Below are positions 19,167-38,103 of a DNA stretch of 64,000 nt, one piece after another. This stretch comes from Mycoavidus cysteinexigens (GTDB taxonomy: Bacteria > Pseudomonadota > Gammaproteobacteria > Burkholderiales > Burkholderiaceae): assembly GCA_031963465.1 (NCBI GenBank), contig JASSUG010000003.1, positions 117,982-181,981 of the forward strand. The letters are read 5' to 3'. A program made the position numbers and the translations under genes. The notes under the pieces were generated by a model. That model was not told the origin of the DNA and searched no databases. It saw nothing but the letters and a program-made list of their open reading frames with translations. Numbering within the stretch: the first letter of the stretch is position 1; each line of letters opens with the position of its first letter.

Positions 19167-20954
19167 TTGGAACCCAGTTTGAGCAAGATCGGACAACAAA
19201 TAAGCCAACGCGTGCGCAATTGGCAAGGGGTATGTGGCATTGGACTGGTCATCATCTTGGCCTTTTTACCCGTGTCTGCACAAGCAGAATATACCGTTGA
19301 TATTGAGGCGCCTCGCAAGCTCAAAGCCTTGCTTAAAAAGCATTTGGATTTGGCGCGCTTCGCCAAGCGCGCTGATATCAGTGATGAACAGTTTGAATTT
19401 TTAGTAACGGCTGCGCCTCAACAAGCGCGTGAGCTTGCTGAAACAGAAGGATACTTTAGTGCCGTGGTGACGACAGATGTCGTCACGCTTGGCAATCAGC
19501 CAGAGGTTACCATCAGCCTTGACCCTGGCCCGTGCACGGCGATTTCATCGGTGGCGCTCAATTTTACGGGAGCGATCCAAACCGAAGAGCCCGCGCGTGA
19601 GGATCTGGCGCGTCGTGCCTGGACATTGCGCCGCGGTGATGGATTTAGTCAGTCCGCTTGGGAGGGGGCTAAAAACGCTTCATTAAAAGCGTTGCAAGCA
19701 AAACGCTATGCCGCGGCCAAAATTCTCCACGCGCAAGCCTTGATTGACCCTCGCAGTGAGCAGGCTAGGCTGGCGGCCACATTCGATAGTGGCCCGACTT
19801 TTACCATGGGAGCGATCGAAATTAGCGGCTTAAAGCGGTATCCTGCAAAAATCATTCATCATGTGAACCCGCTGCAGCCGGGTGAGCTGTATAGCGTGGA
19901 GCGGCTACTTGAATTGCAAAGGCAGGTGCAAAACACAACTTACTTTGCCAGCGTCGCAGTCGATGTGGCAAACGATGCAAGCCAGCCGCACCACGTGCCG
20001 GTAAAAGTGAAAGTCAGTGAATATCCATGGCATTCAATTCGTTCAGGGATTGGGTATTCATCCGATACAGGCGCTCGGGTGCAAGGTAACTATGTCTATA
20101 ACAATATGTTTGGCCGCAGTTGGATCTTGCATGCGCAAGGCCAATTCGAGCAGCACCAGCAAAATATTGCCCTACGTCTATCGATGCCGCCTGATCGCAA
20201 AGCTTATACCAACAGCCTATTAGCGACTCACACCCGCACTAACATTGAAGATACGGATATTCGCAGCCTGCGCCTTGGCGCTCAACGTGCACGCTCATTA
20301 GAGCATTATGATTATGCTTGGTCACTGCTGTATTACGAAGATCAGCTAAGCCAAAATGCTAGCGCGCCAGATGTGAGCCGTGCGCTTGTGCCAACGTGGT
20401 CATGGACGCGTCGAGATGTCGATGACCCGATGTTTGCCCGTCGCGGTAATATTGTTTCGCTATCGGCCGGGTTTGCCGTGAAAGATTTGATGACGGAGCA
20501 ATCGTTTGGACGCTTCTATATGCATGGGCGCCAGTATTTTCCGCTTGGCAAAAACGATCTCGTTTTGTTTCGTGCAGAATTAGGTAGTGTTTTGACTACG
20601 GGTGGTTCAACAGGTATTCCAGCTTCGTTGTTATTCCGGGCGGGCGGGGTTAATTCGGTTCGCGGCTATGGCTATCAAAGTATTGGCCATGAAGTAGCCG
20701 GCTCGATCCTGCCGGCGAAGCATTTAGTGACGGCAAGCGGTGAATATCAGCATTGGTTTAATCGGGATTGGGGCGCGGCCGTATTTTATGATCTAGGAAC
20801 CGCCACCGACAAATGGACAGAAAAAACCTTTTATCAAGGGATGGGCATAGGAATGCGATGGCGTAGCCCGGTAGGGCCGATTAACTTCGATTTGGGGTAT
20901 GGTTTGCGGGATCGTAGGATTCGGCCCTATTTAACACTTGGCATTGCATTCTGA
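19167..20954 (+). CDS. tamA: Omp85-family translocation and assembly module protein TamA
   Basis: 595 aa with a signal peptide ending VSAQA. C-terminal beta-barrel ending in aromatic residues (LTLGIAF). 1-nt TGATG overlap with tamB. TTG start is uncertain. Confidence 0.8.
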   Translation: MEPSLSKIGQQISQRVRNWQGVCGIGLVIILAFLPVSAQAEYTVDIEAPRKLKALLKKHLDLARFAKRADISDEQFEFLVTAAPQQARELAETEGYFSAVVTTDVVTLGNQPEVTISLDPGPCTAISSVALNFTGAIQTEEPAREDLARRAWTLRRGDGFSQSAWEGAKNASLKALQAKRYAAAKILHAQALIDPRSEQARLAATFDSGPTFTMGAIEISGLKRYPAKIIHHVNPLQPGELYSVERLLELQRQVQNTTYFASVAVDVANDASQPHHVPVKVKVSEYPWHSIRSGIGYSSDTGARVQGNYVYNNMFGRSWILHAQGQFEQHQQNIALRLSMPPDRKAYTNSLLATHTRTNIEDTDIRSLRLGAQRARSLEHYDYAWSLLYYEDQLSQNASAPDVSRALVPTWSWTRRDVDDPMFARRGNIVSLSAGFAVKDLMTEQSFGRFYMHGRQYFPLGKNDLVLFRAELGSVLTTGGSTGIPASLLFRAGGVNSVRGYGYQSIGHEVAGSILPAKHLVTASGEYQHWFNRDWGAAVFYDLGTATDKWTEKTFYQGMGIGMRWRSPVGPINFDLGYGLRDRRIRPYLTLGIAF

Positions 20955-23900
20955 TGAGGGGCTGGCGCGTACTCGGTTGGCTGGTGCCAGGTAGCTTGGC
21001 AATCGCCGCATTGATGGCAGGCGCACTGTTGTATGCCAGCCATACTGAACAAGGAACTCGTTCTCTCTGGCAAATTGCGCGCATGCTGTCGGGCGGCCGT
21101 TTAAGCGGCGCCCTAGACGGCGGCACTCTGGCTAGCGGCTTGCATCTGCAACAACTCGCCTGGCGGGCTAAAGGCAAGCAAATTTATATTGATCGGATCG
21201 ATGGTCAGTGGGGTTTTGCGCGCAAGCCATGGCGCTTGAAAGTAGATTGGCTGCGCATCGGCACGGTGGACGCACATTTTGCCCCTACCCCCAAAACGGC
21301 TAAAACACCGCGCTTGCCATCGCTGCCAAACAAGCTTGCGCTGCCGTTCGCATTTGAGATTCTAGAGTTGCGCGTTGACCGTTTGCGTTTACATCAAGTG
21401 CCGCCAGAGACACCGCGCCTTGCCGATAAAACAGGCAAAGCCAGCGCCGCGGTGACTGAATTCAGAGGGTTGGCTATGCGCGCTCGTAGCGATCGTGATC
21501 GCCATCAGTTTACCGTTGAGCCACTCATCACCCCCTTTGGCGAGCTTAAAGGGGAGGTCCAGCTTGATGCTCGCCAACCTTTTGCGCTGACTGGCGCGGT
21601 TCATTTCTTAAGCCGGCCGCAGCCTAAATCTGTTTGGCCAATCCAACACGTGCATTTGCGTTTATCGGGTTCGCTTGAGCAGATGATCATCGATGTCGAT
21701 GCACTAGGCGCCAAACTGGCAAGCCATGCTCGGATTGAAATCACGCCGCCATTTTCAGCGTCATCTATAGAAGCGGCGACGGAGTTAAAATTTGAATTAT
21801 ATGATAGCGTTTATGCCGGCCTGCCGCTCACCGGCTCGGGCATAGTGCAATTAGGCGCAGAACGCGTTTTGTTAAACTCAGTACAACTCTCGATTGCGGG
21901 CAATATAACGGTTTGGCAAGGTAGCTTAGGCCAGCCAGGCGATCAATTGTGGTTTGAGCTGAATGCGCCTCACCTTGAACGGCTGGCAGCGTTTTACTCT
22001 GGTTTAAGCGGCAGATTCAAAGCAAACGGGCATTTAAGTGGGCATTTTGCCAAGCCTAATATTGTTGCGAGTTATCAAGCTGCGTCGCTTGGCTTGGGCC
22101 AAACTCGCATTGAACAGGCAACAGGGCAGGTCGAGATGCATGAGGCGGCCAATAGCGCCCTCGTATTGAACCTGGATGGGCGTAATCTCGTGATGCCCGG
22201 CGTGACGATGCAAACCCTGAAAGCACGGGTGGCGGGTACGCGCGAGCGCCATCGATTGACTGCACATGCAGTCGGCCAGGCCAGTAAAAAGCCGTTCGAT
22301 CTAAGTATGGCGGCGCATGGCAGCTTACCAAGCACCTTAGCGAAGATGCGTTGGCACGGTACGCTGACCCAGTTTGAAAACCGTGGCTCGCTACTCAATG
22401 TAGCCGCGGGCTTGCCCATTCTACGCCTTGCCGCGCCTGTTGCCATCAGCATCGAGCCTAAACGTTTCAGCCTTGGAGCGATGCAATTAGAGATTGAGCA
22501 AGCCATGCTTGATTTACGCGCATTGGTTTACGAGCCGGGCCTGATTCGTTCAGCAGGAACGCTAAAAGGGATTGATGCGGATTGGTTATTGCGTCTTGAG
22601 CAGGCCTTGACCGGTAAGATGGATACGTTCAAAACCGACCTTGTCTTGGATGGTGATTGGGATTTTTCATTAGGCGAGAGAGCGACTGGCTATGCACAAT
22701 TGATGCGGCGAACCGGCGATGTCAGGCTTAATGCTAGCCGGAAATTCACCGCGCTGGGCCTTGATCACCTGTCAGCGCGCGTCGATTTATCTGGTCGGCG
22801 GCAGGCGCATCTCAACCTGCGCGCACACGCTGCGCGGCTTGGTGCATTAGAGGCGAATTTACATTCATCATTGAGTTTAAATCAGGGCCAGTTGTCGATT
22901 GCGCCCGAGGCGCCGCTGTCAGGACGGATCGCCGTGTCGCTGCCTTCGCTCAAAACCATGAGCGCTTTGCTTGGTCCGCAATATGTGTTTGAGGGGCGTT
23001 TAGCGATGGACTTGACTCTGGCCGGACAGATTGCCAAACCTAAATTGTCGGGCCTATTAAGCGGTGATGACCTAGCCGCCAACTTGCTCGATGATGAGAT
23101 TGCATTGACGCGAGGCATTGTGCGCATTGCGCTATCTGAGAATCGGGTTGATTTCCGGCCGGTTGAATTTCATGGTGTGGAAGGTACCCTGCGAATTCTT
23201 GGGAGCATTGCACTGGATCATGTCAATCCTGCTTTATCGGCCAAGATCGTCGCGGATAAATTCGAACTCTTTGCTACGCCAGACAAACAGTTATCCCTCT
23301 CTGGCCAGGCCGTGCTCGCCAATCATGATGCCGCAGGCGGATTAGCGATCGACGGCGACTTTAAGATAGATCATGCGCTGTTTGATTTACCGGCCACGTC
23401 AGCACCGAAACTGGCCGATGATGTGGTGATTATTCGCGCCAATGACGAGCTAGCAGGGGCCGCACTGAACCTTGTCGCGCCAGATGGCGAGCGCTCCGCC
23501 GGCCGTTTTTTGCCGGCGGCAAAAATCAATATCGATCTCGGCCGTGATTTTCGTTTTCATGGCGCTGGCGCAGATTTAAAACTGCGCGGCAAATTAGGCG
23601 TAAGCAGTGAATTTAAGCAACCACTCCATGCCGTTGGCGATATTCGGGTTGCTCAGGGTTCAACCTATGAAGCATTTGGTCGCAAGCTTGCGATTGAAAA
23701 TGGCTATTTTGGATTTAATGGACCGATTGCTAATCCAAGCATTAATGTTCTCGCGATGCGGCGTAATCAGGAAGTTGAAGTTGGCGTGCAGGTCAGCGGT
23801 ACCTTACGTATGCCGAACGCACGGTTGGTTTCAGAACCCAATTTACCAGATAGTGAAAAAATTTCTTGGCTGCTATTTGGCCATGGCAGCAGTGACAGCA

Positions 23901-24214
23901 TGAATCTGGGGCAAACCAATACCACCGCGGCAGCCTTTGCATTACTAGGCGGCGTTGGCGGCAAGCGGATCGCGCAAACGATGGGCCTCGACGAATTTTC
24001 GATTGGTCAAAGTGAGGCCGGGCTAACTGATCCGCAGGTCGCTAACCTTGCCAAGGCGCTGAATGAACGTTTTGTCCTGGGCTATGAGCAAGGGCTCACA
24101 ACCGCGGCCAGCATTTTCAAAGCGACTTGGCAATTTTCGCGCAGTTGGTCACTGACGGCCCATACTGGAACGCTGAATGGCATTGATTTGCTCTTTAACC
24201 GGCGCTTTGATTGA
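20954..24214 (+). CDS. tamB: translocation and assembly module protein TamB (DUF490)
   Basis: 1086 aa. N-terminal membrane anchor, long beta-rich body, and C-terminal DUF490-like end ([14 protein letters not shown]...[11 protein letters not shown]). Confidence 0.8.
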
Positions 24215-25895
24215 GTGAACCCTGGTTAGCCGCTAATAGCGCCTCAATTTGCTTAGCTTCAACGCGTGTCATTAAATGCTGATACGGTTGCAGCGGCTGC
24301 TTAGCCGTGAGCGGAGTTAAATCATGCGACCAGGCCAGGGGGCCAATGCCAAGAAAAGCCTCAACTTTAGCGGCTAAGCCCGGTAAAACAGGTTTGAGCG
24401 CAAGCGTGAGCAAGCGGAACGCTTCTAAACTGACACTACATGTTTCATGTAATGGGGTTGTTTGGGTAGGGTCTTTCGCCAGACTCCAGGGCTTGGTTGT
24501 ATCAATATAAAGATTGACTGCATCGGCTTGTTCCATGGTGATGCGTAAGGCGCGCGCGCTATCGCGGCTTTCGTAGTGGGCGGCAATGGTCGGCAGCGCG
24601 GTGCGTAGTTGCACCAGTAATGGATGATGCATGGCGCTGTCTAGTACGCAACCATTAAAGCGCTTAGCTAAAAAACCAGCCGTGCGGCTGGCAATATTGA
24701 CATACTTACCCACCAAGTCACTATTGACACGCAGGATGAAGTCATCAAAATTCAAGTCAAGATCTTCTAGCGATCCATTCAGCTTAGTCGCGAAATAATA
24801 GCGCAGCCATTCTGGATCGAGTCCTGCTTGAATATAACTATGTGCAGTAATGAAGGTACCGCGTGACTTCGACATTTTTTGCCCATCGACGGTCAGAAAA
24901 CCATGCGCAAAGACATTGGTTGGCGTGCGATAACCGGAAAACTCTAGCATCGCTGGCCAAAACAACGTATGAAAATATAAGATATCTTTGCCAATAAAAT
25001 GATACTGCTCAGCGGTGCTACCGGGTTTAACCCAAGCATCAAAATCCAGTCCCCGTTGATCGCATAACGCTTTAAAGCTTGCATAATACCCAAGCGGTGC
25101 ATCAAGCCAGACATAAAAATACTTACCTGGCGCATGCGGAATCTCAAAGCCAAAGTAGGGTGCGTCGCGTGAAATATCCCAATCAGCGAGTTGCGTGGTA
25201 TGACCGTCTTGACTCTCTGCGCCGCTACCCAACCATTCGCTCATCTTATTGCGGGCTTCAGGCTGCGCTAGCTGGGCCACCCATTGCCGCAGAAAATTTT
25301 CGCAGCGGGGATCGGAGAGCCGGAAAAAATAGTGAGTTGAAATTTTGCGGATCGGCGTCGCGCCGGAAACCACTGAATAAGGGTTCACCAGTTCGGTGGA
25401 TTGATAGGTCGAGCCGCATACTTCGCATGAATCGCCATACTGATCTTGAGCCTGACATTTGGGGCAAGTACCCTTAATAAAACGGTCAGGCAAAAACATC
25501 GAGCGGACTGGATCATACGCTTGCTCGATCTCGCGTGTATCGATTAAGCCAGCGTCCGCCAGGGTCAGATAAACTTGCTCACAAAGCTGTTGGTTGGCCG
25601 CGGAATCGGTTGAATCATAATGATCAAAAGAAATCCCAAAGTCATCGAAATCCCGTTTGTGCTCAGCCCAAACTCGTTTGATCAAGGCTTGCGGCGTGAT
25701 CCCCTCTTTTTCTGCGCGTAGCATAACGGGTGTGCCGTGCGTATCATCGGCCCCTACGTAGTACACCTGATGGCCATGCATACGCAAGGCTCGAGCCCAA
25801 ATATCGGTTTGTATATATTCAACTAAGTGACCAAGATGAATTTGGCCGTTGGCGTAGGGCAGGGCAGAAGTGACAAGAATGCGGCGAGTGGGCAT
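24195..25895 (-). CDS. metG: methionine--tRNA ligase, short form without the C-terminal tRNA-binding appendix
   Basis: 566 aa. HLGH, zinc knuckles CPKC...CEVCG, KMSKS. It ends just after the anticodon-binding domain. 20-nt convergent overlap with tamB. Confidence 0.92.
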
Positions 25896-26236: not shown

Positions 26237-29200
26237 ATGGGGTGGATGATGTTAAAACCAATCAATGGCGTTTCGATTCAACACATTCGATCTGCTTCTA
26301 TTACCACTAACAGACAAGAGCCAATAACACCCCACTCTCGTGAGGAAGCAGACTCGCCGACGCTGAATACCGCCCAGCCCAATGCGGCAGGCATTTTATA
26401 TAACCAACACGCAAATTTCAACGTGGATGCACCCGGCGTCATTTTGCAGAACGGCTCGACTGTTCGGATTATTTTGCATCATGTGATCGGGCGCACGCTT
26501 TCGCAACTGAATAGCGTGATAAAAATCGCCGGGGAGCCGGCTCAATTGGTTTTTTCCAATGCTAACGGCATTGATTGTTGGGGATGTAATTTTCTCAATA
26601 CCAAACATCTGGTGCTCACCACCGGCGAGCCTATTTTAAATAGTAATGGCGATCTTCAGGCCTTTCGCGTAAAGGCAGGTCAAATTACGATCAAAAGCAA
26701 CACGACACTCAAACAGTTTGAGCAAATTGACCTGATTGCGTACTCCATTCAAGTAGAGGGAGAATTGTCCGCCAATAAGATCAACATGAGCACGGGGACG
26801 CACGAAATCAATTACGTGGATACGGGGCTGCCCACGATCACGCGGCGACAGGAACTATCCATCGCAAGTAGCGAGACCAACCAGAGTTCGCGCCGCGCGA
26901 GTAGCTTGCAATTCATTGAGACAGCGAGAGTGTGGGCTAAAAAGCATCTGAATATTCAAGCTGATACGCTAGATAATGCCAGCCATCGGGTTCAATCAAA
27001 CGGTGATTTAACCGTCAAAGCGGTCAGTTTTACGGGTGCGGGAACGCTGAGCGCGGCGCTTGATCTTGCCGCAGAGTTTGAAGAAGACTACACCCATAAA
27101 AATCAATTGAGTGCAGGCCGTCATCTATCGATTTCGACGCCTAAGCGCTTAATCAATCAAGGCACCATACAAACTCAAGGTGAAGTTACACTGGAGGCAA
27201 CAGAGCTTGAGAATCAAGCAAAGTCTTTGATAGATGGCGTTCATCTTACGCTCAAAGCAGGAGGGTCGCTTAGAAACCACGGCGTGATTCAAGGTGGCAG
27301 CATAGCCATCGACGCACCAAGCTTGGTCAATGATGGTACGAATCATACCGAGGAACATCAAGCTGGAGCAATATTGGCGCAGCGCCAGCTTACAATTCAA
27401 GCACAGACTCTGCGCAACCAAGAACACGGATTAGTGCGTAGCGATGGCGAACTGACTATAGGAGATGCCCTCGGTACCCAACGCAAATTGACTGACTCAA
27501 CACAAGAGTTGGTGAATTCCGGCTCTTCTATGATTGAGTCAAGAGGAAAACTCTCGATCCAAGTGAGTCTGTTAGACAATCAAAAAGGACAAATCACAGC
27601 ACATTCTGACCTTATCCTAAGCAGTCAAGCCATTCTAAACCAAGAGGGGCGCATAGAAGCTCAAGGGGAGCAAAGCGTGTTCGATGTTTACACCGCTGCG
27701 ATAAATAATACTTCTGGATGGCTGCTTCATACAGGAACCGGGCAGACTCAGATTGTTGCGCGTGTAACGATAGCGAATTTCAATACTAAAGCGATAACAG
27801 GAGCTGGGTTAATCTTTGGTAAAGGTCCACTTACTATTCACTCTCCCGAAATAATAAATTACGAAGGGGGAGCAATTATTTCGGATCAAATGCTCAAAAT
27901 AAAAACTCCCTACTTGGGCAATCAATTGAGCACCTTATCGGCTGGCCAGAAACTAGAGATTGACACCGATAAATTACAGAATGTAGGAGGCTTGATAACT
28001 GTTGGCGAGCATGAGAAATTCAAGGCGGAGGCTGCCCATAGCGTACCAAGTCTAGCCCGTCACGCTCCTGACTTAGGCGTACTTGAAGTGAATGCTCAAG
28101 AAGTCATTAATACTGCACATAAGGGTGAAAAAGCCAAAGGCAGTTTAATTCGTGTTCAAGGCAAGGTAGTGATGAAAGCAGAGAAAATCTACAATGCGAA
28201 TAAAAGTCAGATTTTAGGGAAGGAGGTGGATCTGAACGCAAAAGAACTCTTCTCCAACGATGCGAGCACGGTGTACGCAAGCGACACGTTTTCGTTGAAG
28301 ACCCATCGCCTTGTCAATTTAGGTAAAGGGATTTTGCAAAGTGAGGGTAAGTTCCATATTTCAGTGAATGATGAGTTGGGCAATCTGAAAGGGCACATCA
28401 TAGCGAGCTCAGATCTTGTTCTGAAAAGTAAAGTACTGGACAATCAAGAAGGCCATATAGAAACCAGGGGAGATCAAAGCGTATTGGACGTGCAGGTCGA
28501 CCTGATTAACAATGCCTCTGGCCAGTTGCTGAATACAAGTGCAGGACAGACTCAAATTGTGGCGCGTCAGAAAATGCTGAATCGCAATATGGATGCAGTA
28601 GAAGGGCGGGGATTCATTTTCGGCAAAGGCCCTGTGAGTGTCACCTCTGCTGAAATAGTCAATGATAAAGGAGGGGTCATTTTTTCGAACCAAATGCTCG
28701 AAATAAAAGCTGCCGACTATGTGTACAATAAATTTGCTACCTTATCGGCCTACCAAAAAATCGACATTAACACCCCTAGCTTAAACAACTACGCTGGAGG
28801 ACTCATTAGTGTAGGAACGGAAGAAGCTGCCAAGACGGCGACCTCGACTGGCGTCCATAGTCCGGACAACCTTACCCATCACGCGGGCGTGCTTACAGTC
28901 CATGCGAAGCAAGTGCATAACATCCTGGATAAAGGCGAGACGCAAGGTGGTCTGATCCGTTTGCAGGGCAAGGTCGAGATGGCGGCAGACAAAATCTTCA
29001 ATGGAAATAAAAGTCAGATTTTAGCGAAAAATGTGAGTTTGAATACAAAAGAACTTTTTTTCGACGTTGGCGGTACGGTATTTGTAAGCGATACATTGGA
29101 TTTAATTGGACACATTTTCAAAATAAAGGGCGAAGTACAGGCGAAGAGTATTCACCTGCTGAGCGGAGTTAGCCAAGTGTGTGGCACGGAGGCACATTCT

Positions 29201-32200
29201 TGGAAGAGTACAGCCAATACAGAGTTTCCTGACAAGGAAGCGCAATTTAGTCAAAGCTGGATGACTGTATTCCAACAGGCTAAAATGTATGTTAGCGGCA
29301 ATCTATCGATTTCGAGTTCGGGTAGCTTACTGAATCAAGGGGAGTTAAAAATAGAGGGCGATATTTCGCTTAAGGCGAGATCCCTAGAGAATCAAGCAAG
29401 CGCTGTGATCGACGGACGATTTCTGACGTTAATCCTACACGATCAGCTTAGAAATGATGGAGTAATCCAAGGCAGCACCGTGGTTATCAGTGCGCAGAGC
29501 CTGGCCAATGATGGTAGCGAGGATACCGATGAACATCAAGCTGGGGCAATCATGGCGCGCCGCCAACTTACCATTGGAGCGCAGACTCTACACAACCAAA
29601 AACATGGCTTAGTACATAGCGATGGAGAATTAACCATAGGTGGCTTCCTCAATGCTCAGTACAAAGTAGAAGGTTCAGCACAGACTCTAAACAACACCAC
29701 GTCTTCCACCATTGAATCGAGAGATAAGCTATTGATCCAAGTCAATCATTTCGACAATCAAAATGGGCAAATCACAACGAGTTCGGACCTTGTCCTGAGG
29801 AGTAAAGTTCTCAACAATACGCACGGCCATATAGAAGCCAACGGTGATCAAAGTGTATTGAATGTGCAGGCAGACACGATTGACAATACCTCAGGCCGAC
29901 TGCTTCATACTGGCATAGGACAGATTCAAATCCTGGCTCACGATTCAATTGTGAACCGTAATGCAGAAGGGGTAAAAGGGGCGGGTTTCATTAGTGGTAA
30001 AGGTCCTGTTACCGTCACCGCTCCTCAAATATCAAATGATGAGGGCGGGACATTTTTTTCGAACCAATCGCTCGAAATAAAATCTGCCACCTTATTGGAC
30101 AACCAAGGCACTTTGCACGGTAAGGATCACGTTTGGATCGAGGCTAAAGCGATAAGCAACGGTATAAGCCGAAAGACTGAAGTGACTGGAGAGCCTGAAG
30201 AGCCTGAAATGGCTCTATTGAGCGCATTGTCTCAATTAACTAACCAATTAAGCAAGATGATACAGGGGGATTTTCAGCCGAATGAGTTTAAAAACCCCGA
30301 GTATTTGATTACTGGCAATAAGATTTCAATAAGCGCGCATGATGGCTTGATCAATACGAATGCCGTGATCTTCGCGCAAAACAGTCTCGAGATCGGTGCC
30401 AAGTGCATTAACAATTTCGAACAAGGCATACTCTATAGCGGCGGTAATCTGACTATTGGCGGTCAGTTTGATACTCAGTTCAAAGTAACGGGCGTCAGTG
30501 AGCATGTTTTCAATTATGGATCAACGATAGATGCGCTAGGCGACCTTGTGATCAATTCAGAAACGTTGCTCAATGCAAACAGGAAGTTCAAGACCGAAGA
30601 ACAGGTCATTGAACAGCGAGATATACATGAATGTCATGATCACCATACCAACCAACGCTACGATGGATCTCAAATCGGATGGCATGGTGACGTAGGGGGC
30701 CTTTACCGTGTGCACCACTCCGGTGTAGAAATTTTTTGTTTTACCAACTATAGCTTTACCCGTCGTGTGTCAACGACTGTGGTCACGCACAGCGAGCCCG
30801 GTAAAATTCAAGCGGGTGGGGAGATCCGCTTATCGGGAGCGGTCATTAATGATAAAAGCCGGATTATTGCCGGGGGAGCGCTCAGTGACCTCGAAGGTGG
30901 AGCGGCTCAGATTAATAACCGTGATGCCAACGGTCAGCGTGTCACCACCGATCAGGGAACATCGCAATGGTCAGACAGAGACTGGCATGGTGGAATGTTT
31001 AGTCGGGGCTGGAGTCGTGATTGGAGCGGGCACGTACCCTACCATCCAGCTCCGGTGGTAGAACACCACAATTTGAATGTAGCCGTCTCTCAACAACACA
31101 CTGCGGTTGACCATCAAGCGCCCTCTACAGCGCTAGTGCGCACCTCTGCCCTAACAAGCAGCAGCCCTTTTTTGAATAGTGGCTTACAGCACTTTCAGCT
31201 CGATCCTGCTCAACCCTATCTGATTCAAACCGATCCCCGTTTTACGCGCAACAGCGATACCGTTTCTAGCAATTTTTTACTGAGCTTACTCAATCTCGAC
31301 CCCCAACGCGTCCCAAAGCGCTTAGGGGATGGCTTTTATGAACAGCAACTGATTCGCGATCAGATTATTGGTTTGACAGGTCACTATTATCTATCTGGCT
31401 ATCGAAACCAAATTGCTGAATTCAAAGCTTTAATGCATCGAGGCGCAAATTGGGCCAAACAGCATAATCTGACGCTAGGCATCGAGCCCACGCCGCAGCA
31501 AATTGCCGCTTTAACCGCGAGTCCAGTCTGGATGGTGAATCAACGCGTTAAATTACCGGATGGCTCAGAACAGACGGTCTTGATGCCCAAAGTCTATCTG
31601 GCTAACAGAGATGTCAGTCCAATTCCGTTGGGCGGCTCGCTGATTTCAGCCAACACCATTGAACTGCATAGCGATCATCCCCTAAAAAATGCCGGCACGA
31701 TGATCAGCCGCGGTAAGATGGCTCTCACTGCACGCAATATTGATAACCAGCGCGGCGCAATCGTCAGCTTGGACACCCTCTCGATACAGGCGAGCCATAA
31801 TATCGATAGCCGTGCTGGCCAGCTGATTGCCGTCAAAAAAATGACTTTAAAAGCTGGACAGGATCTCCACCTGCAGAGCCAAACCTATACGACCCACGCC
31901 GCCAGTGGCAGCCAGACAGCGCTGGATGGGGTCACCGAAGTTCGAGCCAAGCAATTAGACGCGTATGCCGAATCGGACATTCATCTGGCGGCGACTCAAA
32001 TCAAGGTGGATGAAAACGCCCGTTTAGAAGCCAAAGGGGACCTCACACTAGGTACAGCCACGGTAAGCACCCAACACCAATTAACCTGGGATGAACGCAA
32101 TAGCTTAAGCCTAAGCAGAAAAACAGAAATCGGCACGCAAATTGAAACGGGCGGCTCACTTGAACTTAAGTCGGGCCGGGATATCTATGCGCCTGGCGCT

Positions 32201-35200
32201 TACGTGAATGCTGGCAAAGGACTTTCTGTCAAAGCGGATCGAGATATTAACGTGGAGGCAGCCTATGAAGAGACGGATTTTGAGGAATCTCATTATCATG
32301 AGTCGAGCAATTTCTTCTCCTCGTCGAGTGAACTCACGCAAAACAAACTGTATAGAAAACAAGCATTGAGCAGCACCTTATCCGGCGGCACGGTACAGAT
32401 AGAAGCCGGACATGACCTGAATATCATGGGTTCAAACGTGATCGGGATGCACGATGTGGATCTCTATGCTGCCAACGATATCCAGCAAAAAGCGGTCGAG
32501 CAAGCTGAGAGAGGCCGGCACTATTCCGTTAAAGAACGCTCAGGCTTATTAGATAGCGGGCAATTCGGAATGACTGTGGGCACGCGGACACAAACAGATA
32601 CTCAAGAAAATGAGCACACGCCCCAGATTGGCTCGGTAATCGGCAGCGTATCCGGCCATGTCAGAGCCATTGCCGGCCGTGAATACAAGCAAAGTGGCAG
32701 TCAGCTGGTTGTGCCGACAGGCGATATCCAGATTCAGGCTGGCAAGGCCAAGATCGATGCGTCCTATGAGGAGAGCCGGGTCTGGCAGCGCAGTGAATGG
32801 CAGCAATCGGGTTTGACGGTTTCGGTCAGCGCGCCCGTGCTTGCAGCGGCACAAACGAGTCAGCAGATGCTACAGGCCAGTACCCAAGTCAGTGATCCAC
32901 GGATGCAGGCGTTGGCGGCAGGCGCAGGTGCACTGGCGATGAAAAATGCCTACGATGCGATCCAGGCGGATCCCAAAGCAGCGGGTGGCGCGACAGTGAA
33001 CGTGATGATTGGCGAAGATCATTGTGAAACAGAGCAGACGCAACTGAGCAAGACGGCGCTGAACAGCACGCTGGCGGCAGGGGGAAATATATCGATCCAG
33101 ATCGGTGGCTTAGGAGAAGAATCCACGCTGGACCTGATTGGCGCTCGCATAGAAGCAAAACAGGAGATTACGCTTAACGTAGAAGGTCGACTGAATGTGG
33201 AGGCTGCGCCGAATAGCTTGATTGAGCAGAGTCAGCAGCAGAGCCGGAGTGTTGCCGTGGGGATGGCGGCAACGCTTGGCAGCCAGAATTCAGTGGGGGC
33301 CTCGCTGGCGGTAAGTGTTGGGCATGGCCATGCAGATGGGGCGCAAATCAGCTATACGCCGACCTTGATCCAGGCGGGTGGCAAGCTGACGCTTAATGCA
33401 CAAAGCGATGTGCGCCTAAAAGGCGCGCAGATAGCTGGAGCGCAGGTCAAAGCGCAGATTGAGGGCGATCTTGAAATAGACAGTGTGCAAAACACGGCAA
33501 CTTACCGTAGCCACTCTCAAAGTATCAGTGGCAGCGTAACAGTAGGTCCTGTCTCAGCGGCCAGCCTGCATTTCTCGCAACGTAGGATGGACAGTCGTTA
33601 TCTGAGCGTGGCGGAACAAGCGGGGATTCAAGCGGGAGAAGGGGGCTTTCAGATAACCGTTAAAGGGGATACGAAGCTTGTCGGTGGCGTGATTGCAGGG
33701 GCTGAGCAGGCAGTACGGGAAGGCAGGAACACCCTGCTTACAGGAACCTTGCACCAGACTGATCTGACGAATCAAGCGAGCTATGATGCAAGCAGTATCA
33801 GTTTAGGTGGCGGGTACAGTAAAAGTGGCAAAGGGGTGGGCTCGAAGCAATCAGGAGAAGTGACAACGCCTGCTCATAGCGGCAATCAACTGGCAAGCCG
33901 GGGTGGGATGAGCGCTGCGATACCGATTGTGATGAGTGCTTCGGGTCAGGCACAGTCTACAACCCGCAGTGCGATTAGCGGTGCGGAGATTGTGATTACG
34001 GATGAGGCCCGGCAAATGGAGTTGACGGGTCAAAGCGCGGCAGAGACGATTGCCAGCCTGAACCGGAATTCGGCACACAGTCATCAAGCGTTAGCGCCGA
34101 TTTTTAACCGGACTGAGATTGAGGCTAGCTTTGATATCGTCAATGCATTAGGTCGGGAAGCGGGTACCTTTATCGCCAATAGAGGCAGAGAAGCGGATCA
34201 TAAGCTTGAGCGAGCCAAAAATATAGAGACGCAGGCCAATGATGAGTCTATGTCTGTAGCGCAGCGGCAAGAATTGCTGGCAGCCGCGGCTGAATTACGT
34301 GCGCAGGCACAGACTTTGAATAAGCAATGGGGAGCCGGAGGGAGCTACCGTCGCATCGTCACTGCGCTGACGGCAGCGGCAGCAGGCAATGTGACTGGGA
34401 CCACCGCGCAATTTACCCAAGCGGCGGCGCTCAACTATTTGCAAAGCTTGGGTGCCGAAAAAATCAAGCATATTGCAGATAGCCTGCATGATGAAACGGC
34501 GCGTGCTGCCTTGCATGGGGCATTGGCTTATGGCGGCGCAGTCGCACGGGGGCAATCGGGTGGCGCAGCGGCCTTGGGCGCGAGTGCAAGTGTATTAGTA
34601 AATACTCTATTAGGTCCTGTAGAAGGCGAGTCTGAAGAGGAGAAAGAGGCGCGCAAGAATATAGTTACTAGCCTAGTGGCGGGGTTTGCGGATGTAGGAG
34701 GGGTTGATGCGACATCCGCGCAGACTGCGGCGCAGATTGAAACAGAAAATAATGCGATGGTGCTGGCGGCACCGTTATTGGTCACCCCACCTGGACTTGC
34801 TTTATTAGGTTTATTAGGCGCGGTGGCTACAGGTGCGGTGGTGGTGAAAGGCGCCATGGATTATTATGAAGAGTATAAAGAGCGGGCAAACAATACTAAG
34901 CAGCCTGGAGAGGACGATAATCAGTTAGTACAACAGGCTCCGGCGCCAATGTTCACGCTTATTATGGAACCGCCGCAGTCGTCCCTGATTCCCGGCACGG
35001 CATGGCATCCGGATGAAGAAGTGCTGCTTGGAGGTAAGCCTAATCAATCTGGGGAGCATGTCCTTCAGCCTATAGAGACGCCCAGGGAGGTTCAATCAGC
35101 AGCAGGTAATGCGCTGGAGAATCCGATTGCCGAGCCGTTGACTATACTTGACACGGTCAAATATAGTAAGGGGACGAAGAATGCGAATAGAGACAAGGAT

Positions 35201-35506
35201 TATGTGCCGAATGCGGGTGCTGTTGATAATATGGAGCAATTTTTTAATGAAACAGAGTTTGGTAAGGAAATAAAACTTGTAGCTAGGGCTACTAAGGAAT
35301 TTTATGATGGTCAGAGAATATACGAAGTAACCAAAAAGATTAAGGGTAAGGTAGCGAAAAGGGATCTTTTTTATTTGGATAATAAACACTTGGATCATTT
35401 GGAGGTGCTTGACGCAAATAAATCTTTCAAGTATGTTTTGAATCTTGATGGCACAATTAATGAGATCAAAACAGAAAAAGCAAAAGGTAGAAGATTGGAG
35501 AAATAG
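26237..35506 (+). CDS. cdiA: CdiA/FhaB-family two-partner-secretion exoprotein with a C-terminal polymorphic toxin domain
   Basis: 3089 aa. TPS-domain motifs NAAGILYNQHANFNV and FSNANGIDCWGCNFLNT near the N-terminus, and long beta-helical hemagglutinin-type repeats. Conserved LGDGFYEQQLIRDQI...LTASPVWMVNQRVKLPDGSEQTVLMPKVYL block. TENN (VENN-like) boundary at 34742-34753, followed by a 250-aa tip. Confidence 0.85.
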   Translation: MGWMMLKPINGVSIQHIRSASITTNRQEPITPHSREEADSPTLNTAQPNAAGILYNQHANFNVDAPGVILQNGSTVRIILHHVIGRTLSQLNSVIKIAGEPAQLVFSNANGIDCWGCNFLNTKHLVLTTGEPILNSNGDLQAFRVKAGQITIKSNTTLKQFEQIDLIAYSIQVEGELSANKINMSTGTHEINYVDTGLPTITRRQELSIASSETNQSSRRASSLQFIETARVWAKKHLNIQADTLDNASHRVQSNGDLTVKAVSFTGAGTLSAALDLAAEFEEDYTHKNQLSAGRHLSISTPKRLINQGTIQTQGEVTLEATELENQAKSLIDGVHLTLKAGGSLRNHGVIQGGSIAIDAPSLVNDGTNHTEEHQAGAILAQRQLTIQAQTLRNQEHGLVRSDGELTIGDALGTQRKLTDSTQELVNSGSSMIESRGKLSIQVSLLDNQKGQITAHSDLILSSQAILNQEGRIEAQGEQSVFDVYTAAINNTSGWLLHTGTGQTQIVARVTIANFNTKAITGAGLIFGKGPLTIHSPEIINYEGGAIISDQMLKIKTPYLGNQLSTLSAGQKLEIDTDKLQNVGGLITVGEHEKFKAEAAHSVPSLARHAPDLGVLEVNAQEVINTAHKGEKAKGSLIRVQGKVVMKAEKIYNANKSQILGKEVDLNAKELFSNDASTVYASDTFSLKTHRLVNLGKGILQSEGKFHISVNDELGNLKGHIIASSDLVLKSKVLDNQEGHIETRGDQSVLDVQVDLINNASGQLLNTSAGQTQIVARQKMLNRNMDAVEGRGFIFGKGPVSVTSAEIVNDKGGVIFSNQMLEIKAADYVYNKFATLSAYQKIDINTPSLNNYAGGLISVGTEEAAKTATSTGVHSPDNLTHHAGVLTVHAKQVHNILDKGETQGGLIRLQGKVEMAADKIFNGNKSQILAKNVSLNTKELFFDVGGTVFVSDTLDLIGHIFKIKGEVQAKSIHLLSGVSQVCGTEAHSWKSTANTEFPDKEAQFSQSWMTVFQQAKMYVSGNLSISSSGSLLNQGELKIEGDISLKARSLENQASAVIDGRFLTLILHDQLRNDGVIQGSTVVISAQSLANDGSEDTDEHQAGAIMARRQLTIGAQTLHNQKHGLVHSDGELTIGGFLNAQYKVEGSAQTLNNTTSSTIESRDKLLIQVNHFDNQNGQITTSSDLVLRSKVLNNTHGHIEANGDQSVLNVQADTIDNTSGRLLHTGIGQIQILAHDSIVNRNAEGVKGAGFISGKGPVTVTAPQISNDEGGTFFSNQSLEIKSATLLDNQGTLHGKDHVWIEAKAISNGISRKTEVTGEPEEPEMALLSALSQLTNQLSKMIQGDFQPNEFKNPEYLITGNKISISAHDGLINTNAVIFAQNSLEIGAKCINNFEQGILYSGGNLTIGGQFDTQFKVTGVSEHVFNYGSTIDALGDLVINSETLLNANRKFKTEEQVIEQRDIHECHDHHTNQRYDGSQIGWHGDVGGLYRVHHSGVEIFCFTNYSFTRRVSTTVVTHSEPGKIQAGGEIRLSGAVINDKSRIIAGGALSDLEGGAAQINNRDANGQRVTTDQGTSQWSDRDWHGGMFSRGWSRDWSGHVPYHPAPVVEHHNLNVAVSQQHTAVDHQAPSTALVRTSALTSSSPFLNSGLQHFQLDPAQPYLIQTDPRFTRNSDTVSSNFLLSLLNLDPQRVPKRLGDGFYEQQLIRDQIIGLTGHYYLSGYRNQIAEFKALMHRGANWAKQHNLTLGIEPTPQQIAALTASPVWMVNQRVKLPDGSEQTVLMPKVYLANRDVSPIPLGGSLISANTIELHSDHPLKNAGTMISRGKMALTARNIDNQRGAIVSLDTLSIQASHNIDSRAGQLIAVKKMTLKAGQDLHLQSQTYTTHAASGSQTALDGVTEVRAKQLDAYAESDIHLAATQIKVDENARLEAKGDLTLGTATVSTQHQLTWDERNSLSLSRKTEIGTQIETGGSLELKSGRDIYAPGAYVNAGKGLSVKADRDINVEAAYEETDFEESHYHESSNFFSSSSELTQNKLYRKQALSSTLSGGTVQIEAGHDLNIMGSNVIGMHDVDLYAANDIQQKAVEQAERGRHYSVKERSGLLDSGQFGMTVGTRTQTDTQENEHTPQIGSVIGSVSGHVRAIAGREYKQSGSQLVVPTGDIQIQAGKAKIDASYEESRVWQRSEWQQSGLTVSVSAPVLAAAQTSQQMLQASTQVSDPRMQALAAGAGALAMKNAYDAIQADPKAAGGATVNVMIGEDHCETEQTQLSKTALNSTLAAGGNISIQIGGLGEESTLDLIGARIEAKQEITLNVEGRLNVEAAPNSLIEQSQQQSRSVAVGMAATLGSQNSVGASLAVSVGHGHADGAQISYTPTLIQAGGKLTLNAQSDVRLKGAQIAGAQVKAQIEGDLEIDSVQNTATYRSHSQSISGSVTVGPVSAASLHFSQRRMDSRYLSVAEQAGIQAGEGGFQITVKGDTKLVGGVIAGAEQAVREGRNTLLTGTLHQTDLTNQASYDASSISLGGGYSKSGKGVGSKQSGEVTTPAHSGNQLASRGGMSAAIPIVMSASGQAQSTTRSAISGAEIVITDEARQMELTGQSAAETIASLNRNSAHSHQALAPIFNRTEIEASFDIVNALGREAGTFIANRGREADHKLERAKNIETQANDESMSVAQRQELLAAAAELRAQAQTLNKQWGAGGSYRRIVTALTAAAAGNVTGTTAQFTQAAALNYLQSLGAEKIKHIADSLHDETARAALHGALAYGGAVARGQSGGAAALGASASVLVNTLLGPVEGESEEEKEARKNIVTSLVAGFADVGGVDATSAQTAAQIETENNAMVLAAPLLVTPPGLALLGLLGAVATGAVVVKGAMDYYEEYKERANNTKQPGEDDNQLVQQAPAPMFTLIMEPPQSSLIPGTAWHPDEEVLLGGKPNQSGEHVLQPIETPREVQSAAGNALENPIAEPLTILDTVKYSKGTKNANRDKDYVPNAGAVDNMEQFFNETEFGKEIKLVARATKEFYDGQRIYEVTKKIKGKVAKRDLFYLDNKHLDHLEVLDANKSFKYVLNLDGTINEIKTEKAKGRRLEK

Positions 35507-35516
35507 AGTGAGTTCA

Positions 35517-36302
35517 ATGTTGGATTTTAATAAATTTAAAGCGCGTTTAATCGAATGCCTTAAGTCTCATGGTTTGGATCTAGAAGCATCAAATAAAAGG
35601 ACTGGGCTTCTAGTATGGTATATAGATTGGGATGATAATTTTAATGACTCATTTGAATTTGAATTGAGGCAGATAAAAAATGCGCTTGATCTATATGATA
35701 AAGCTCTGTTAGAAAAAGATGTGTTAACAACTAAGGCAGCTATTCTCCATGCCTCCATAAAAATTGAACTATTTTCAGGCAGTCCATTCAACGCAATTTC
35801 ACGCGATTTGACAAGAGTTCTTAATGATAAAAGTTTCAATTGGCCTCCTTTGAGAAAAGGTTATGTTATTCCAAATAAATATTTGGATAAAAAAATAAAC
35901 GGAATCGACCAGGAAGAACTGATGAGTTTAACTAAAATTCAAAAAATCTTGATAGATCTAGTCAAATCACATGGTGTGACGGACGAAGAATTAAAGCAGG
36001 TAGGTAAGCGAACAAAGCGTTTAATATGGGGTATCGACCTGAACAGCGACTTCAATAAAATCTTCTATGAAAAGCTGCTAGCTTTGCAAATAGCTTTTGA
36101 TGCATATGAAAAAGCATCTATACAAGAGGACTGGCGAGCAGTTCGAGCGATCCTCCAAAGAATTAGGCTAATCAATTTTCAGCTCTATAAATTCTTGGAC
36201 GGGATTAGAGTAGCGCTAAAAAGTGCATGGTTAGACAAACGTTTTTGGCCCTCTTTCCCGGAAAATTATAAAATACCAGCGCACTATAATTATGAAGAAT
36301 AA
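35517..36302 (+). CDS. candidate CdiI-type immunity protein (two tandem homologous halves)
   Basis: First ORF after the cdiA stop (35506), with ATG at 35517 or GTG at 35508 after GGAG. Same AT-rich composition as the toxin tip. No recognisable family. Internal duplication is visible in the translation. Confidence 0.5.
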   Translation: MLDFNKFKARLIECLKSHGLDLEASNKRTGLLVWYIDWDDNFNDSFEFELRQIKNALDLYDKALLEKDVLTTKAAILHASIKIELFSGSPFNAISRDLTRVLNDKSFNWPPLRKGYVIPNKYLDKKINGIDQEELMSLTKIQKILIDLVKSHGVTDEELKQVGKRTKRLIWGIDLNSDFNKIFYEKLLALQIAFDAYEKASIQEDWRAVRAILQRIRLINFQLYKFLDGIRVALKSAWLDKRFWPSFPENYKIPAHYNYEE

Positions 36303-36391
36303 GCTAGCTTGTAGAGTTAGGATGAAGTTCGCATTGAGTAAGCAAAACGGGGTAAGATCATAGGCCAAGCGCATGATCAAATTCGCGAGAC

Positions 36392-36414
36392 AAAAAAACG
36401 GGGCCAAAGCCCCG
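36392..36414 (-). terminator. rho-independent terminator (minus strand), separated from its gene by the IS66 insertion
   Basis: Minus strand reads CGGGGC-TTTG-GCCCCG followed by TTTTTTT. It lies 15 nt outside the IS left end. Confidence 0.7.
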
Positions 36415-36468
36415 TAATAAGAAACAAGGTACCTTCTCAATAACCCGGGGCGAACGCCGGCAAACTGC

Positions 36469-38103
36469 TCAAGCAGAGGCTGCGATGGATTGTTCGACAA
36501 GGTGCGGCAGAAGTGGAATTTGATCGCTGCACGAAATGCGGTCGGTGAGGTAATCCCAGAACGAGATGCCCAGCTTGCGACAGGTCTTCTTCAGGGTGGA
36601 GAAAGTATCGCGACATTGCCGACCGAGCTCGCTTCGCGTGCCACCACTGATCTTTTGCTTTTTCACGTGATCGCGAATGTCGCGTTCACTGTCGTTGGTG
36701 TGGAGTGGAACCTCAGGGCGTTCTAACACCAGTAGTAACTCGGATTTATTTTGGTGAATCCGCCTGAGCAGACGATTGAGTGTTGCGTAGCGGGTCTTCT
36801 GGGTGAAGATCGTATCAAAGCGCGCCGCCAGTGTTTTTTTGTCTGTAGCCGTGGGCTGCAGCTTGTATGCTTTCAGATCGGCATAGAGCGTCCAGATCTC
36901 GTCACGCACCCGGGCGATGTCCTCTCGATGTTGATCATTGAGCGGTAGCATCTTATGTACCAATCTTTCTGCATGGACCCAACATAATCCGTGAATCAGC
37001 ACGTTGAACTGCCCTGCATCATCGCTGATGATGGCCAGATCTGGGGAGACGCCACGCTGCTTCAGACTACCCAGCAGTGCGCCCTCGGTAGCAATGTTGC
37101 GGTGGCGCGGAGCGTCCATCCCCAAACAATCCAGGTGGTGCTGCCACGCTCCCTGGTCAGCGAAGCTTGTGCTCTCGTGTTGCCGCAGCGCGTCCAGGAA
37201 CACTTGCGAGAGCCCCTGCTTTTTCATGTACGCGAGCGCGTCTTCGTTGATCTGGTAATCGCCATGGCCCGCACGCAATAATGCCAGGAAATTGATCCGG
37301 CTCTTCGAGTCCGTGCTTTTGAACCACGCGAAATGCGGGTTACCAATGTGGGTGACGTAGCCGCTCCGGCCTCGATGCCGCGTGCCGGTATCATCAACCG
37401 TTACATACGCCGAGAGCGCCAAGCCGGTCGATAACAGCCCGTCTTTTTCCGCATGAAACTGCTCTTTGCCTTCTTGCAACAGCGTGTTTACCTGCCCCAC
37501 TGAGATCTCGATGCCCCATTCCCGCAGTTGCTCGCATAGCAGCGGCTGCGTGACGTGACAATGGTAGTGCTGGTAGAGCACATAGCTCACCAGAGCCGGG
37601 CCAAAATGGCCACCGCCGACTGATTTGGGAAGCTGCCCGATCAGAGTCTGGCCGTCTGGCGTTTGCCAGCGTGCCAGTCGATACCGCGTGTTGCGTGATT
37701 CGATTGTCAACTCTTGCACTACGAAATCACGATAGCCCTTGAATCGGGAACCTGGCGGAATCGGCTCGGCCGGTTCGATGATTGTGTCACGATCAATCTT
37801 CAGTTGCGCCGTCTTGTGCTTCTTCGCTGATCCGGGCCGTTTGGCCGCTTCCTCATTCTGCGTTTGATCTGGTTTGGCAGGCTTGCCAGCATCCTCGTTC
37901 ATGCGGCTTGGCTTGAACGTCGGACGCTTCTTTTCCCCCTGGAGCACCGCGACTTCGTCTTTCAGATGCCCTATGTCCTCCAGCAATTGATGGATGATTT
38001 CGACCAGTCCGTCACTCCATGCGAACACCTTCATGACCGCCGGCGTCCGATCGACTTCGGCGACATACGGTGCTGAGAGTTTCTTCAGCATGGCGCTTCT
38101 CAC
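36469..38103 (-). CDS. IS66-family transposase (DDE body)
   Basis: 544 aa. Typical IS66 TnpC-like sequence (DDTGTRH..., CWVHAERL, HTNDSERDIR...KISGGTRS). Confidence 0.85.
   Translation of the reverse strand: MRSAMLKKLSAPYVAEVDRTPAVMKVFAWSDGLVEIIHQLLEDIGHLKDEVAVLQGEKKRPTFKPSRMNEDAGKPAKPDQTQNEEAAKRPGSAKKHKTAQLKIDRDTIIEPAEPIPPGSRFKGYRDFVVQELTIESRNTRYRLARWQTPDGQTLIGQLPKSVGGGHFGPALVSYVLYQHYHCHVTQPLLCEQLREWGIEISVGQVNTLLQEGKEQFHAEKDGLLSTGLALSAYVTVDDTGTRHRGRSGYVTHIGNPHFAWFKSTDSKSRINFLALLRAGHGDYQINEDALAYMKKQGLSQVFLDALRQHESTSFADQGAWQHHLDCLGMDAPRHRNIATEGALLGSLKQRGVSPDLAIISDDAGQFNVLIHGLCWVHAERLVHKMLPLNDQHREDIARVRDEIWTLYADLKAYKLQPTATDKKTLAARFDTIFTQKTRYATLNRLLRRIHQNKSELLLVLERPEVPLHTNDSERDIRDHVKKQKISGGTRSELGRQCRDTFSTLKKTCRKLGISFWDYLTDRISCSDQIPLLPHLVEQSIAASA

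Follow-up and report, generated by a model that had tools for sequence, protein, structure and literature searches.

We analyzed a stretch of 64,000 nucleotides (nt) from Mycoavidus cysteinexigens (contig JASSUG010000003.1 of assembly GCA_031963465.1), called the window below. Members of the genus Mycoavidus are Burkholderiaceae endosymbionts of Mortierella fungi. The window encodes a CdiA-type two-partner-secretion exoprotein whose C-terminal region (CT) ends in a toxin module, and the immunity gene follows directly downstream. The features of this system are given here, with toxin residues numbered from the lysine (K) at 35195, which places the codon of D62 at 35378-35380.

26237-35506, plus strand: CdiA-type two-partner-secretion exoprotein of 3089 amino acids (aa), from Pfam and NCBIfam domain matches.
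34736-34753, plus strand: IETENN, the VENN-equivalent junction that closes the conserved body.
34754-34858, plus strand: hydrophobic segment AMVLAAPLLVTPPGLALLGLLGAVATGAVVVKGAM, 35 aa (residues 2840-2874), a candidate membrane-insertion or translocation element.
34859-35221, plus strand: Pro-rich linker of ~120 aa (...PPQSxxIPGxAWHxDEEVLLxGxPNQSGEH...), lineage-specific and with host-like G+C.
35222-35503, plus strand: terminal toxin module with a 94-aa core, whose conservation extends from VDNMEQFF up to the C-terminus; probably of the Ntox29 type and a predicted nuclease.
35378-35404, plus strand: core motif D62-N-K-H65-L-D67-H68-L-E70 (family consensus YLDxxHK[DN]HLEV), from conservation in 152 representatives.
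35441-35491, plus strand: second conserved block N83-L-D85-G86-T-x-N89-x-x-K92 ... G98-R99, from the same 152 representatives.
35517-36302, plus strand: immunity protein of 261 aa, a tandem-duplicated DUF6853/3NYM-like helical domain with halves at ~35517-35909 and 35910-36299.
35223-36399, not assigned to a strand: low-G+C block (32-36%) with the toxin and immunity cassette, bounded by G+C change-points at 35223 and 36399.

The large open reading frame (ORF) ends at 35506, in agreement with the original prediction, an earlier note on this DNA. Pfam models of the TPS (two-partner secretion) domain (E 4.8e-24), Fil_haemagg (E 1.5e-20) and Fil_haemagg_2 (E 3.4e-39) match its 3089-aa product, as do the NCBIfam models of the filamentous haemagglutinin (FHA) N-terminal domain and of 20-aa repeats. 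Because it combines a TPS secretion domain, FHA repeats and an FHA N-terminal domain, ORF 26237-35506 is a CdiA-type two-partner-secretion exoprotein; the N-terminal hallmarks of this class, TPS together with filamentous-haemagglutinin repeats, are both present.

The conserved body had been predicted to close with IETENN at 34736-34753, and the codons ATT GAA ACA GAA AAT AAT are read exactly there. In an alignment of CT relatives, the sequences of P0004 and P0005 depart straight after IETDNN, with other sequence in place of the hydrophobic segment; therefore, the ENN motif is a real junction. The divergence of relatives after ET(E/D)NN supports the earlier view that a CdiA-type C-terminal toxin lies past a VENN-equivalent junction. 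By eye, the stretch ahead of the junction, ...LVAGFADVGGVDATSAQTAAQIETENNA, looks like the PT-VENN regions of P0046 and P0062. The Pfam PT-VENN model (PF04829) did not match the window protein even at E up to 10, and it gave a weak match (E 0.49, profile positions 21-51 of 52) where an orphan ORF of Mycoavidus begins (L005).

Past ET(E/D)NN, the alignment divides the CT into three modules: the hydrophobic segment, the Pro-rich linker and the terminal module. What had been described as a 250-aa toxin tip is therefore composite, and the toxin module makes up 94-103 aa of it. The hydrophobic segment shows a mean Kyte-Doolittle value of 1.76 and holds the top 19-residue window (2.06) of the whole protein, so that the strong hydrophobicity noted earlier past TENN is borne out, for a length of 35 residues rather than 34. 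It is kept in the Mycoavidus relatives P0001-P0003 and in P0008. A word-indexed search with the 254-aa CT as query returned only ten proteins, mostly Mycoavidus CdiA fragments; among these ten, the Pro-rich linker was found in Mycoavidus-type proteins only, and the linker had no Pfam match. P0008, an orphan CT from Mycoavidus sp. B2-EB (L005 5536-6564), has the same ETENN junction, hydrophobic segment and linker, but it ends in a different terminal toxin. That toxin is weakly similar (E 0.008, 34% over 61 aa) to Tox3(Pt), whose toxicity was shown experimentally (PMC13483458). The hydrophobic segment and the linker form a separate, lineage-specific module, which probably serves membrane translocation.

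The maximum-likelihood change-point in G+C lies at 35223, where the value falls from 0.537 to 0.322; the low G+C runs on through the downstream gene and rises again at ~36.3-36.4 kb. The gene body has a G+C of 49.6%, the hydrophobic segment 59% and the linker (34856-35194) 50%, and at third codon positions the toxin and immunity genes have a G+C of 0.32, the gene body and linker one of 0.50. The original prediction had put the gene body at ~47% and the fall at ~34.9 kb, which is ~300 nt off, given that 34856-35194 is still at 50%. The start of the terminal module (35222) and the change-point coincide; therefore, the exchanged cassette consists of the last 94 aa and the downstream gene, and not of everything past TENN. 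We conclude that the toxin module and its immunity gene were horizontally acquired as one cassette, which runs from 35223 to ~36.3 kb. The idea of a swapped, low-G+C CT/immunity cassette stands, with its boundary placed neither at TENN nor at 34.9 kb.

The terminal module begins with V-x-N-M-x-x-F-F, and the proteins P0009 (PT-HINT) and P0010 (PT-TG) also carry it C-terminally. Eight such modules (alignment A2) were built into a profile, and a search of it against 1.84 billion representative proteins identified at least 543 clusters (50% identity) at E up to 1e-3, with 405 clusters at E up to 1e-10. After re-alignment of the 152 best representatives, on which all conservation percentages are based, the domain ended no more than 4 residues from the C-terminus. 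G23, H68, E70 and G86 are conserved in 100% of these sequences and Y60, L61, D62, N89 and K92 in 99%, followed by N83 and R99 (97% each), H65 (96%), D85 (95%) and D57 (86%). The window copy retains all of the strongly conserved residues. The residues of the D-x2-H, H-x-E-V and G-R-R motifs, which had been picked out from the window alone, are present, and D62, H65, H68, E70 and R99 are 96-100% conserved, far beyond chance; the residues then proposed as catalytic coincide with the invariant ones of the family.

The carriers of this module include CdiA proteins (TPS, FHA, DUF637, PT-VENN), S-type pyocins with the Pyocin_S translocation domain directly ahead, LXG proteins (type VII secretion), and PT-HINT and PT-TG proteins. 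A scan of species-representative genomes found 115 toxin loci. They occur, among others, in Photorhabdus (many), Yersinia, Serratia, Enterobacter, Erwinia, Pseudomonas, Burkholderia, Cupriavidus, Pandoraea, Herbaspirillum, Vibrio, Neisseriaceae and a planctomycete; Enterococcus, Streptococcus, Listeria and Clostridium also have them. Matches in a tblastn search of plasmid records were labelled only 'hypothetical' or 'LXG'. At four Photorhabdus loci (L010, L014, L018 and L020), two or three successive toxin/immunity cassettes of the same family form orphan arrays that follow a DUF637-type CdiA.

Neither Pfam nor NCBIfam gave a match relevant to the toxin when scanned with the 254-aa CT, and the same held for Pfam when 8 and later 50 family members were scanned singly at E up to 10. 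PDB sequence searches with a single toxin sequence and two profiles gave no match. The suggestion that this may be a new toxin domain therefore holds as far as the curated libraries are concerned, from which it is missing; however, it is an existing family of 543 clusters whose signature matches that of Ntox29, described in silico in 2012.

The ORF at 35517-36302 lies on the same strand, 10 nt past the toxin stop. Its halves are 32% identical (E 2e-15), and a hidden Markov model (HMM) of each half matches the other (E 5e-19 and 3e-17). At the loci retrieved, we took the ORF that immediately follows each toxin homologue, and 55 of these 93 ORFs constituted one family matched by both half-HMMs (E down to 1e-34), whose members are single-domain proteins of 95-174 aa, save four Mycoavidus-type copies. 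At least four unrelated families follow the one toxin family: the DUF6853-like family, DUF3916 (12 ORFs), an acidic Firmicutes type of ~100 aa (8) and an Imm41-like type (4; L025, L068, L069, L073).

An AlphaFold2 model of the immunity protein was all-helical, with a predicted local distance difference test score (pLDDT) of 84, and its best PDB match in Foldseek was 3nym_A (probability 1.0; TM-score normalized to the target, TMt, 0.74; 21% identity). The profile of the immunity family matched 3NYM at E 1.5e-21, and this profile includes a near-identical Neisseriaceae sequence, the L080 orthologue (L080 4326-4673), which is a bona fide DUF6853 protein (E 1.5e-62). The window protein matched the Pfam DUF6853 model at E 0.025, below threshold. 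Given the co-occurrence of the families and the 3NYM match, DUF6853/3NYM is the cognate immunity domain of the toxin family, doubled in the window. Each half of ORF 35517-36302 has the helical fold of 3NYM/DUF6853 (Neisseria meningitidis MC58, function unknown), whereas 3NYM, like most relatives, has a single domain of 100-130 aa and the window protein fuses two. Literature searches found no functional information on DUF6853, DUF3916 or 3NYM.

The 261-aa protein has 23 close relatives of ~263 aa, and all of the named ones occur in Mycoavidus or Glomeribacter, where a genome has several paralogues; the toxin protein likewise has its nearest relatives in these two genera. Both halves are conserved across these 23 paralogues, and precomputed PF21593 matches exist for about half of the paralogues in Mycoavidus. 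We conclude that ORF 35517-36302 is the immunity gene: its G+C is as low as that of the toxin, and its domain family follows 55 of the 93 toxin homologues. Long downstream proteins of 222-381 aa were also observed in a Chloroherpeton metagenome-assembled genome and two uncultured bacteria (L077 627-1367 and 2263-3003, L079 6137-6805 and 7382-8050, and L062 4294-5439); these may be further duplicated immunity domains.

Zhang et al. (2012, Biol Direct 7:18, PMC3482391) tabulated Ntox29 with the signature D, D, HxE, D, K, R, from beta/gamma-proteobacteria and firmicutes, on type V secretion system (T5SS, FilH repeats), LXG and HINT carriers, and predicted a new metal-dependent nuclease on the basis of the histidines and aspartates that it conserves. 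The window toxin family fits this signature with D57, D62, H68-x-E70, D85, K92 and R99. It occurs on the same T5SS/FilH, LXG and HINT carriers and in the same taxa, and also in further phyla. Because signature, taxa and carriers match, we filed the module under this name; it is very probably Ntox29, judged by the signature and distribution in the published table. The family also differs from the published description in two respects. Imm41 is the sole immunity partner listed for Ntox29 in that source, whereas the main partner here is DUF6853-like (55/93), with DUF3916 and others besides; the Imm41-like subgroup of 4/93 is weak, and only the downstream protein of L025 (Burkholderia) matches Imm41, below threshold (E 0.01). 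In addition, the fold is called all-beta in that source, whereas our toxin model has short helices at both ends. The literature search found no further mention of Ntox29 beyond Zhang et al. 2012.

The AlphaFold2 model of the toxin, calculated on A2, had a pLDDT of 88.3 and a predicted TM-score (pTM) of 0.80. It runs in the order helix, helix, five strands, helix (helices 13-19, 21-27 and 90-96; strands 30-37, 40-45, 58-61, 68-72 and 77-83). Its best structural neighbor is an uncharacterized phage protein in BFVD (A0A8S5UHN0, Siphoviridae sp. ctZd434, 279 aa; probability 0.94, TM-score normalized to the query, TMq, 0.52, E 0.07), possibly a relative of the toxin fold that is carried by a phage.

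The last 94-103 residues form a self-contained polymorphic-toxin module, which we propose to be a nuclease in the cytoplasm of the target cell, most likely metal-dependent and with DNA or RNA as its substrate. One catalytic center would comprise H68 and E70, both on strand beta-4, together with D62, H65, N83, D85, N89, K92 and R99; from the predicted topology, the invariant residues would be expected to cluster at one end of the beta-3/beta-4/beta-5 meander and where the last helix begins. The module would probably be carried across the membrane by the hydrophobic segment and the Pro-rich linker, and the 261-aa downstream protein would neutralize it by binding. In the S-type pyocins and colicins known so far, the nuclease domains that follow Pyocin_S act in the cytoplasm; therefore, the fusion of family members to Pyocin_S suggests a cytoplasmic target. 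Nuclease activity as such seems to us reasonably probable, and we lean, with some reserve, towards a nuclease that acts in the cytoplasm and more likely depends on a metal.

Several observations weigh against this reading. No Pfam, NCBIfam or PDB sequence match backs any enzymatic class, and no experiment on any member of the toxin family was found in the literature. Foldseek searches of the confident toxin model against the PDB and BFVD gave nothing significant (best E 0.25 and 0.07, respectively). The very probable Ntox29 identity is drawn from a tabulated signature and a distribution, and what the module has in common with HNH/beta-beta-alpha-Me nucleases is motif spacing. The window copy has off-consensus residues at several sites of moderate conservation (A32 for K, R56 for G, L72 for F and K76 for G). 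Finally, the large ORFs scanned across the 64 kb include no TpsB/CdiB (ShlB-type) gene and an IS66 element adjoins the cassette, so that delivery and activity in the organism are putative.

HNH nucleases are common as toxins on the same carriers, and the 'HLDH' of the window toxin is like H38-L-D-H41 of T4 endonuclease VII. By eye, the distances from H68 to N83 and N89 are 15 and 21 residues, as in colicin E9 and endonuclease VII, and by our reading the H68-x7-G76-x6-N83-x5-N89-x2-K92 spacing sits on a beta-hairpin and then a helix in the toxin model. However, there is no profile similarity: hhalign gave a probability of 0.1% against an endonuclease VII family built from 44 phage loci and 1.8% against the colicin E9 DNase (the T4 endonuclease VII and colicin E9 DNase sequences were verified against the PDB). 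The 50 toxin family members matched no HNH-type Pfam families, and no HNH protein was in the Foldseek top 50. A place in the HNH/endonuclease VII group is therefore not supported.

Four other candidates were also set aside. Tox-DHNNK differs from the window toxin family in its listed immunities (SUKH, SuFu, Imm33) and its carriers, which do not include T5SS. Tde5 of P. aeruginosa (PMC13392607) is a 135-aa domain with three catalytic His, delivered by a type VI secretion system, and has no sequence match. The PT1 and PT7 DNases (Levy laboratory preprint) have a different spacing of catalytic residues, and there was no PDB sequence match although solved structures are reported. None of six validated W10XG/PT-TG toxins (PMC13483458) exceeded 3.4 bits against the toxin HMM.

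The alternative that survives best is a metal-independent RNase of the colicin E3/CdiA-CT(ECL) or wider BECR type, which would cut rRNA or tRNA via D62, H65/H68, E70 and R99. The colicin E3 rRNase folds as an N-terminal helix and a twisted antiparallel sheet, and the toxin model resembles it in both respects and in its length of ~95 aa; the toxin's D-x2-H...E...R order, an acid/His/Glu...Arg arrangement, is also like D510/H513/E517/R545 of E3. Similarly, the rRNases of colicin E3, cloacin DF13 and pyocin S6 (PF09000) and the CdiA-CT of E. cloacae (Ntox21, 4NTQ) are C-terminal killing domains of about this size on pyocin/colicin-type and CdiA carriers. These likenesses were not accompanied by any HMM or profile-profile similarity. 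When the 152-sequence toxin profile was compared with 53 E3 relatives by hhalign, the probability was 0.4% (E 0.16) and the catalytic residues were not superposed (the E3 sequence was verified against 1E44_B), which leaves our by-eye alignment of YEWDSQHGELEGY with FYLDNKHLDHLEVL unsupported.

Foldseek gave two independent weak pointers towards this alternative, namely 4ntq_A, the CdiA-CT of E. cloacae (E 2.9, TMt 0.45), in the PDB, where the top match was LolA (E 0.25), and a phage 'colicin E3-like ribonuclease' protein in BFVD (E 0.34, TMq 0.45). Barnase (1bsb, TMq 0.24) and RNase T1 (TMq 0.20) appeared only at E 3.5; no colicin E5, colicin D, RelE or EndoU was among the PDB matches listed, and no solved colicin E3 chain was in the top 50. 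The 50 family members matched neither PF09000 nor any BECR family at E up to 10, and the structural comparison gives the BECR fold (barnase/EndoU/colicin E5, D/RelE) no support. The immunity proteins speak on both sides: Imm41 is listed with both Ntox21, the ECL toxin, and Ntox29 (PMC3482391), whereas the immunity protein of the window toxin is unrelated, being the all-helical DUF6853 type. Fusion to Pyocin_S is equally compatible with an RNase and a DNase. The abundance of conserved Asp and Asn residues is more easily reconciled with metal binding, an argument made by Zhang et al. for Ntox29 (PMC3482391). A colicin E3/E5-like (BECR) RNase, as put forward in the original prediction, thus found no support in Pfam, NCBIfam, the PDB or hhalign and only non-significant hints in Foldseek, and we regard this alternative as doubtful compared with the metal-dependent nuclease that we favor.

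The neighborhood of the cdiA gene bears on whether the toxin would be delivered. The neighboring features are as follows.

19167-24214: TamA/TamB, upstream of the cdiA gene.
24195-25895, minus strand: metG, neighbor of the cdiA gene.
36469-38103, minus strand: IS66-family transposase, outside the toxin system (Pfam DDE_Tnp_IS66, E 7.6e-16).

The cdiA gene lies between metG and the IS66-family transposase, which is followed by an OmpA-like gene and apbC/mrp, and the toxin and the immunity gene each occur once in the window. Right where the low-G+C block closes there is a G+C-rich stem-loop (36398-36415, ACGGGGC...GCCCCGT) with a minus-strand T-run, which probably serves the IS66 transposase gene as its terminator. 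In Burkholderia-type loci, a transporter gene comes after the immunity gene; therefore, the IS66 element beside the cassette here may mark a rearrangement. The locus is like the bcpAIOB and cdiBAI loci of contact-dependent inhibition in that a two-partner-secretion exoprotein has a variable CT past an (E/V)ENN-type junction and an immunity gene directly after it. It differs from them in that no cdiB/bcpB is found within 64 kb, in that the junction is ETENN instead of VENN or NxxLYN, and in that the N-terminal part of the CT is the hydrophobic and Pro-rich module, with no recognizable entry domain. Literature searches on Mycoavidus and contact-dependent systems found nothing functional.

We also considered the possibility that the locus is a decaying or silent relic, whose toxin would go undelivered even if the module is intact. 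The window has no ShlB/TpsB-type gene, its sole Omp85 protein is the TamA beside TamB, the IS66 transposase lies only 166 nt past the immunity gene, and many Mycoavidus homologues in the databases are fragments. However, the 9.3-kb ORF is unbroken, the strongly conserved toxin residues are all kept, and both immunity halves are conserved across the 23 paralogues. In addition, CdiB could be encoded elsewhere in the genome, as our view is limited to 64 kb. A relic therefore seems unlikely to us.

A terminal domain that is no nuclease and acts on some other cytoplasmic or membrane target (a nucleotide, a translation factor or the envelope), perhaps with membrane damage added by the hydrophobic segment, would suit the fact that homology to any nuclease could not be demonstrated, the predicted fold without a significant PDB neighbor and the position of the protein's strongest hydrophobic segment inside the CT, but we consider it very unlikely: this segment is missing from nearly all other carriers (pyocin, LXG, PT-HINT, PT-TG) and is common to the different toxin of P0008, and therefore lies outside the toxic module; Pyocin_S fusion and PT-VENN CdiA carriers with non-hydrophobic entry regions point to a cytoplasmic target; and the conserved His/Glu/Asp/Asn/Lys/Arg set would be typical of phosphodiester chemistry.

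The window thus encodes a standard CdiA-CT/immunity cassette, and the system itself is not new. Its toxin is a new member of a large, predicted family, while the doubled immunity domain and the hydrophobic/Pro-rich CT module are lineage-specific variations. The unit that recombines in this case comprises the last 94 aa and the immunity gene, rather than all sequence past the VENN-like motif. The toxin domain is very widespread and yet has neither a Pfam model nor a solved structure, and its confident structural model matches nothing solved. For DUF6853 and the orphan structure 3NYM, our results provide a functional annotation as the cognate immunity family, and the tandem-duplicated form of this domain belongs, among the loci examined, only to endofungal Burkholderiaceae. 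More speculatively, and with little confidence on our part, the Ntox29-type module could represent a structurally new class of nucleic-acid-cleaving enzymes, neither HNH, PD-(D/E)xK, BECR nor colicin-E3-like, that in Mycoavidus and Glomeribacter drove the emergence of two-domain immunity and of a hydrophobic, receptor-independent entry module. If this speculation is true, then a new nuclease class accompanied by two-domain immunity and an entry module would hint at intense warfare of symbiont against symbiont inside fungal hyphae.

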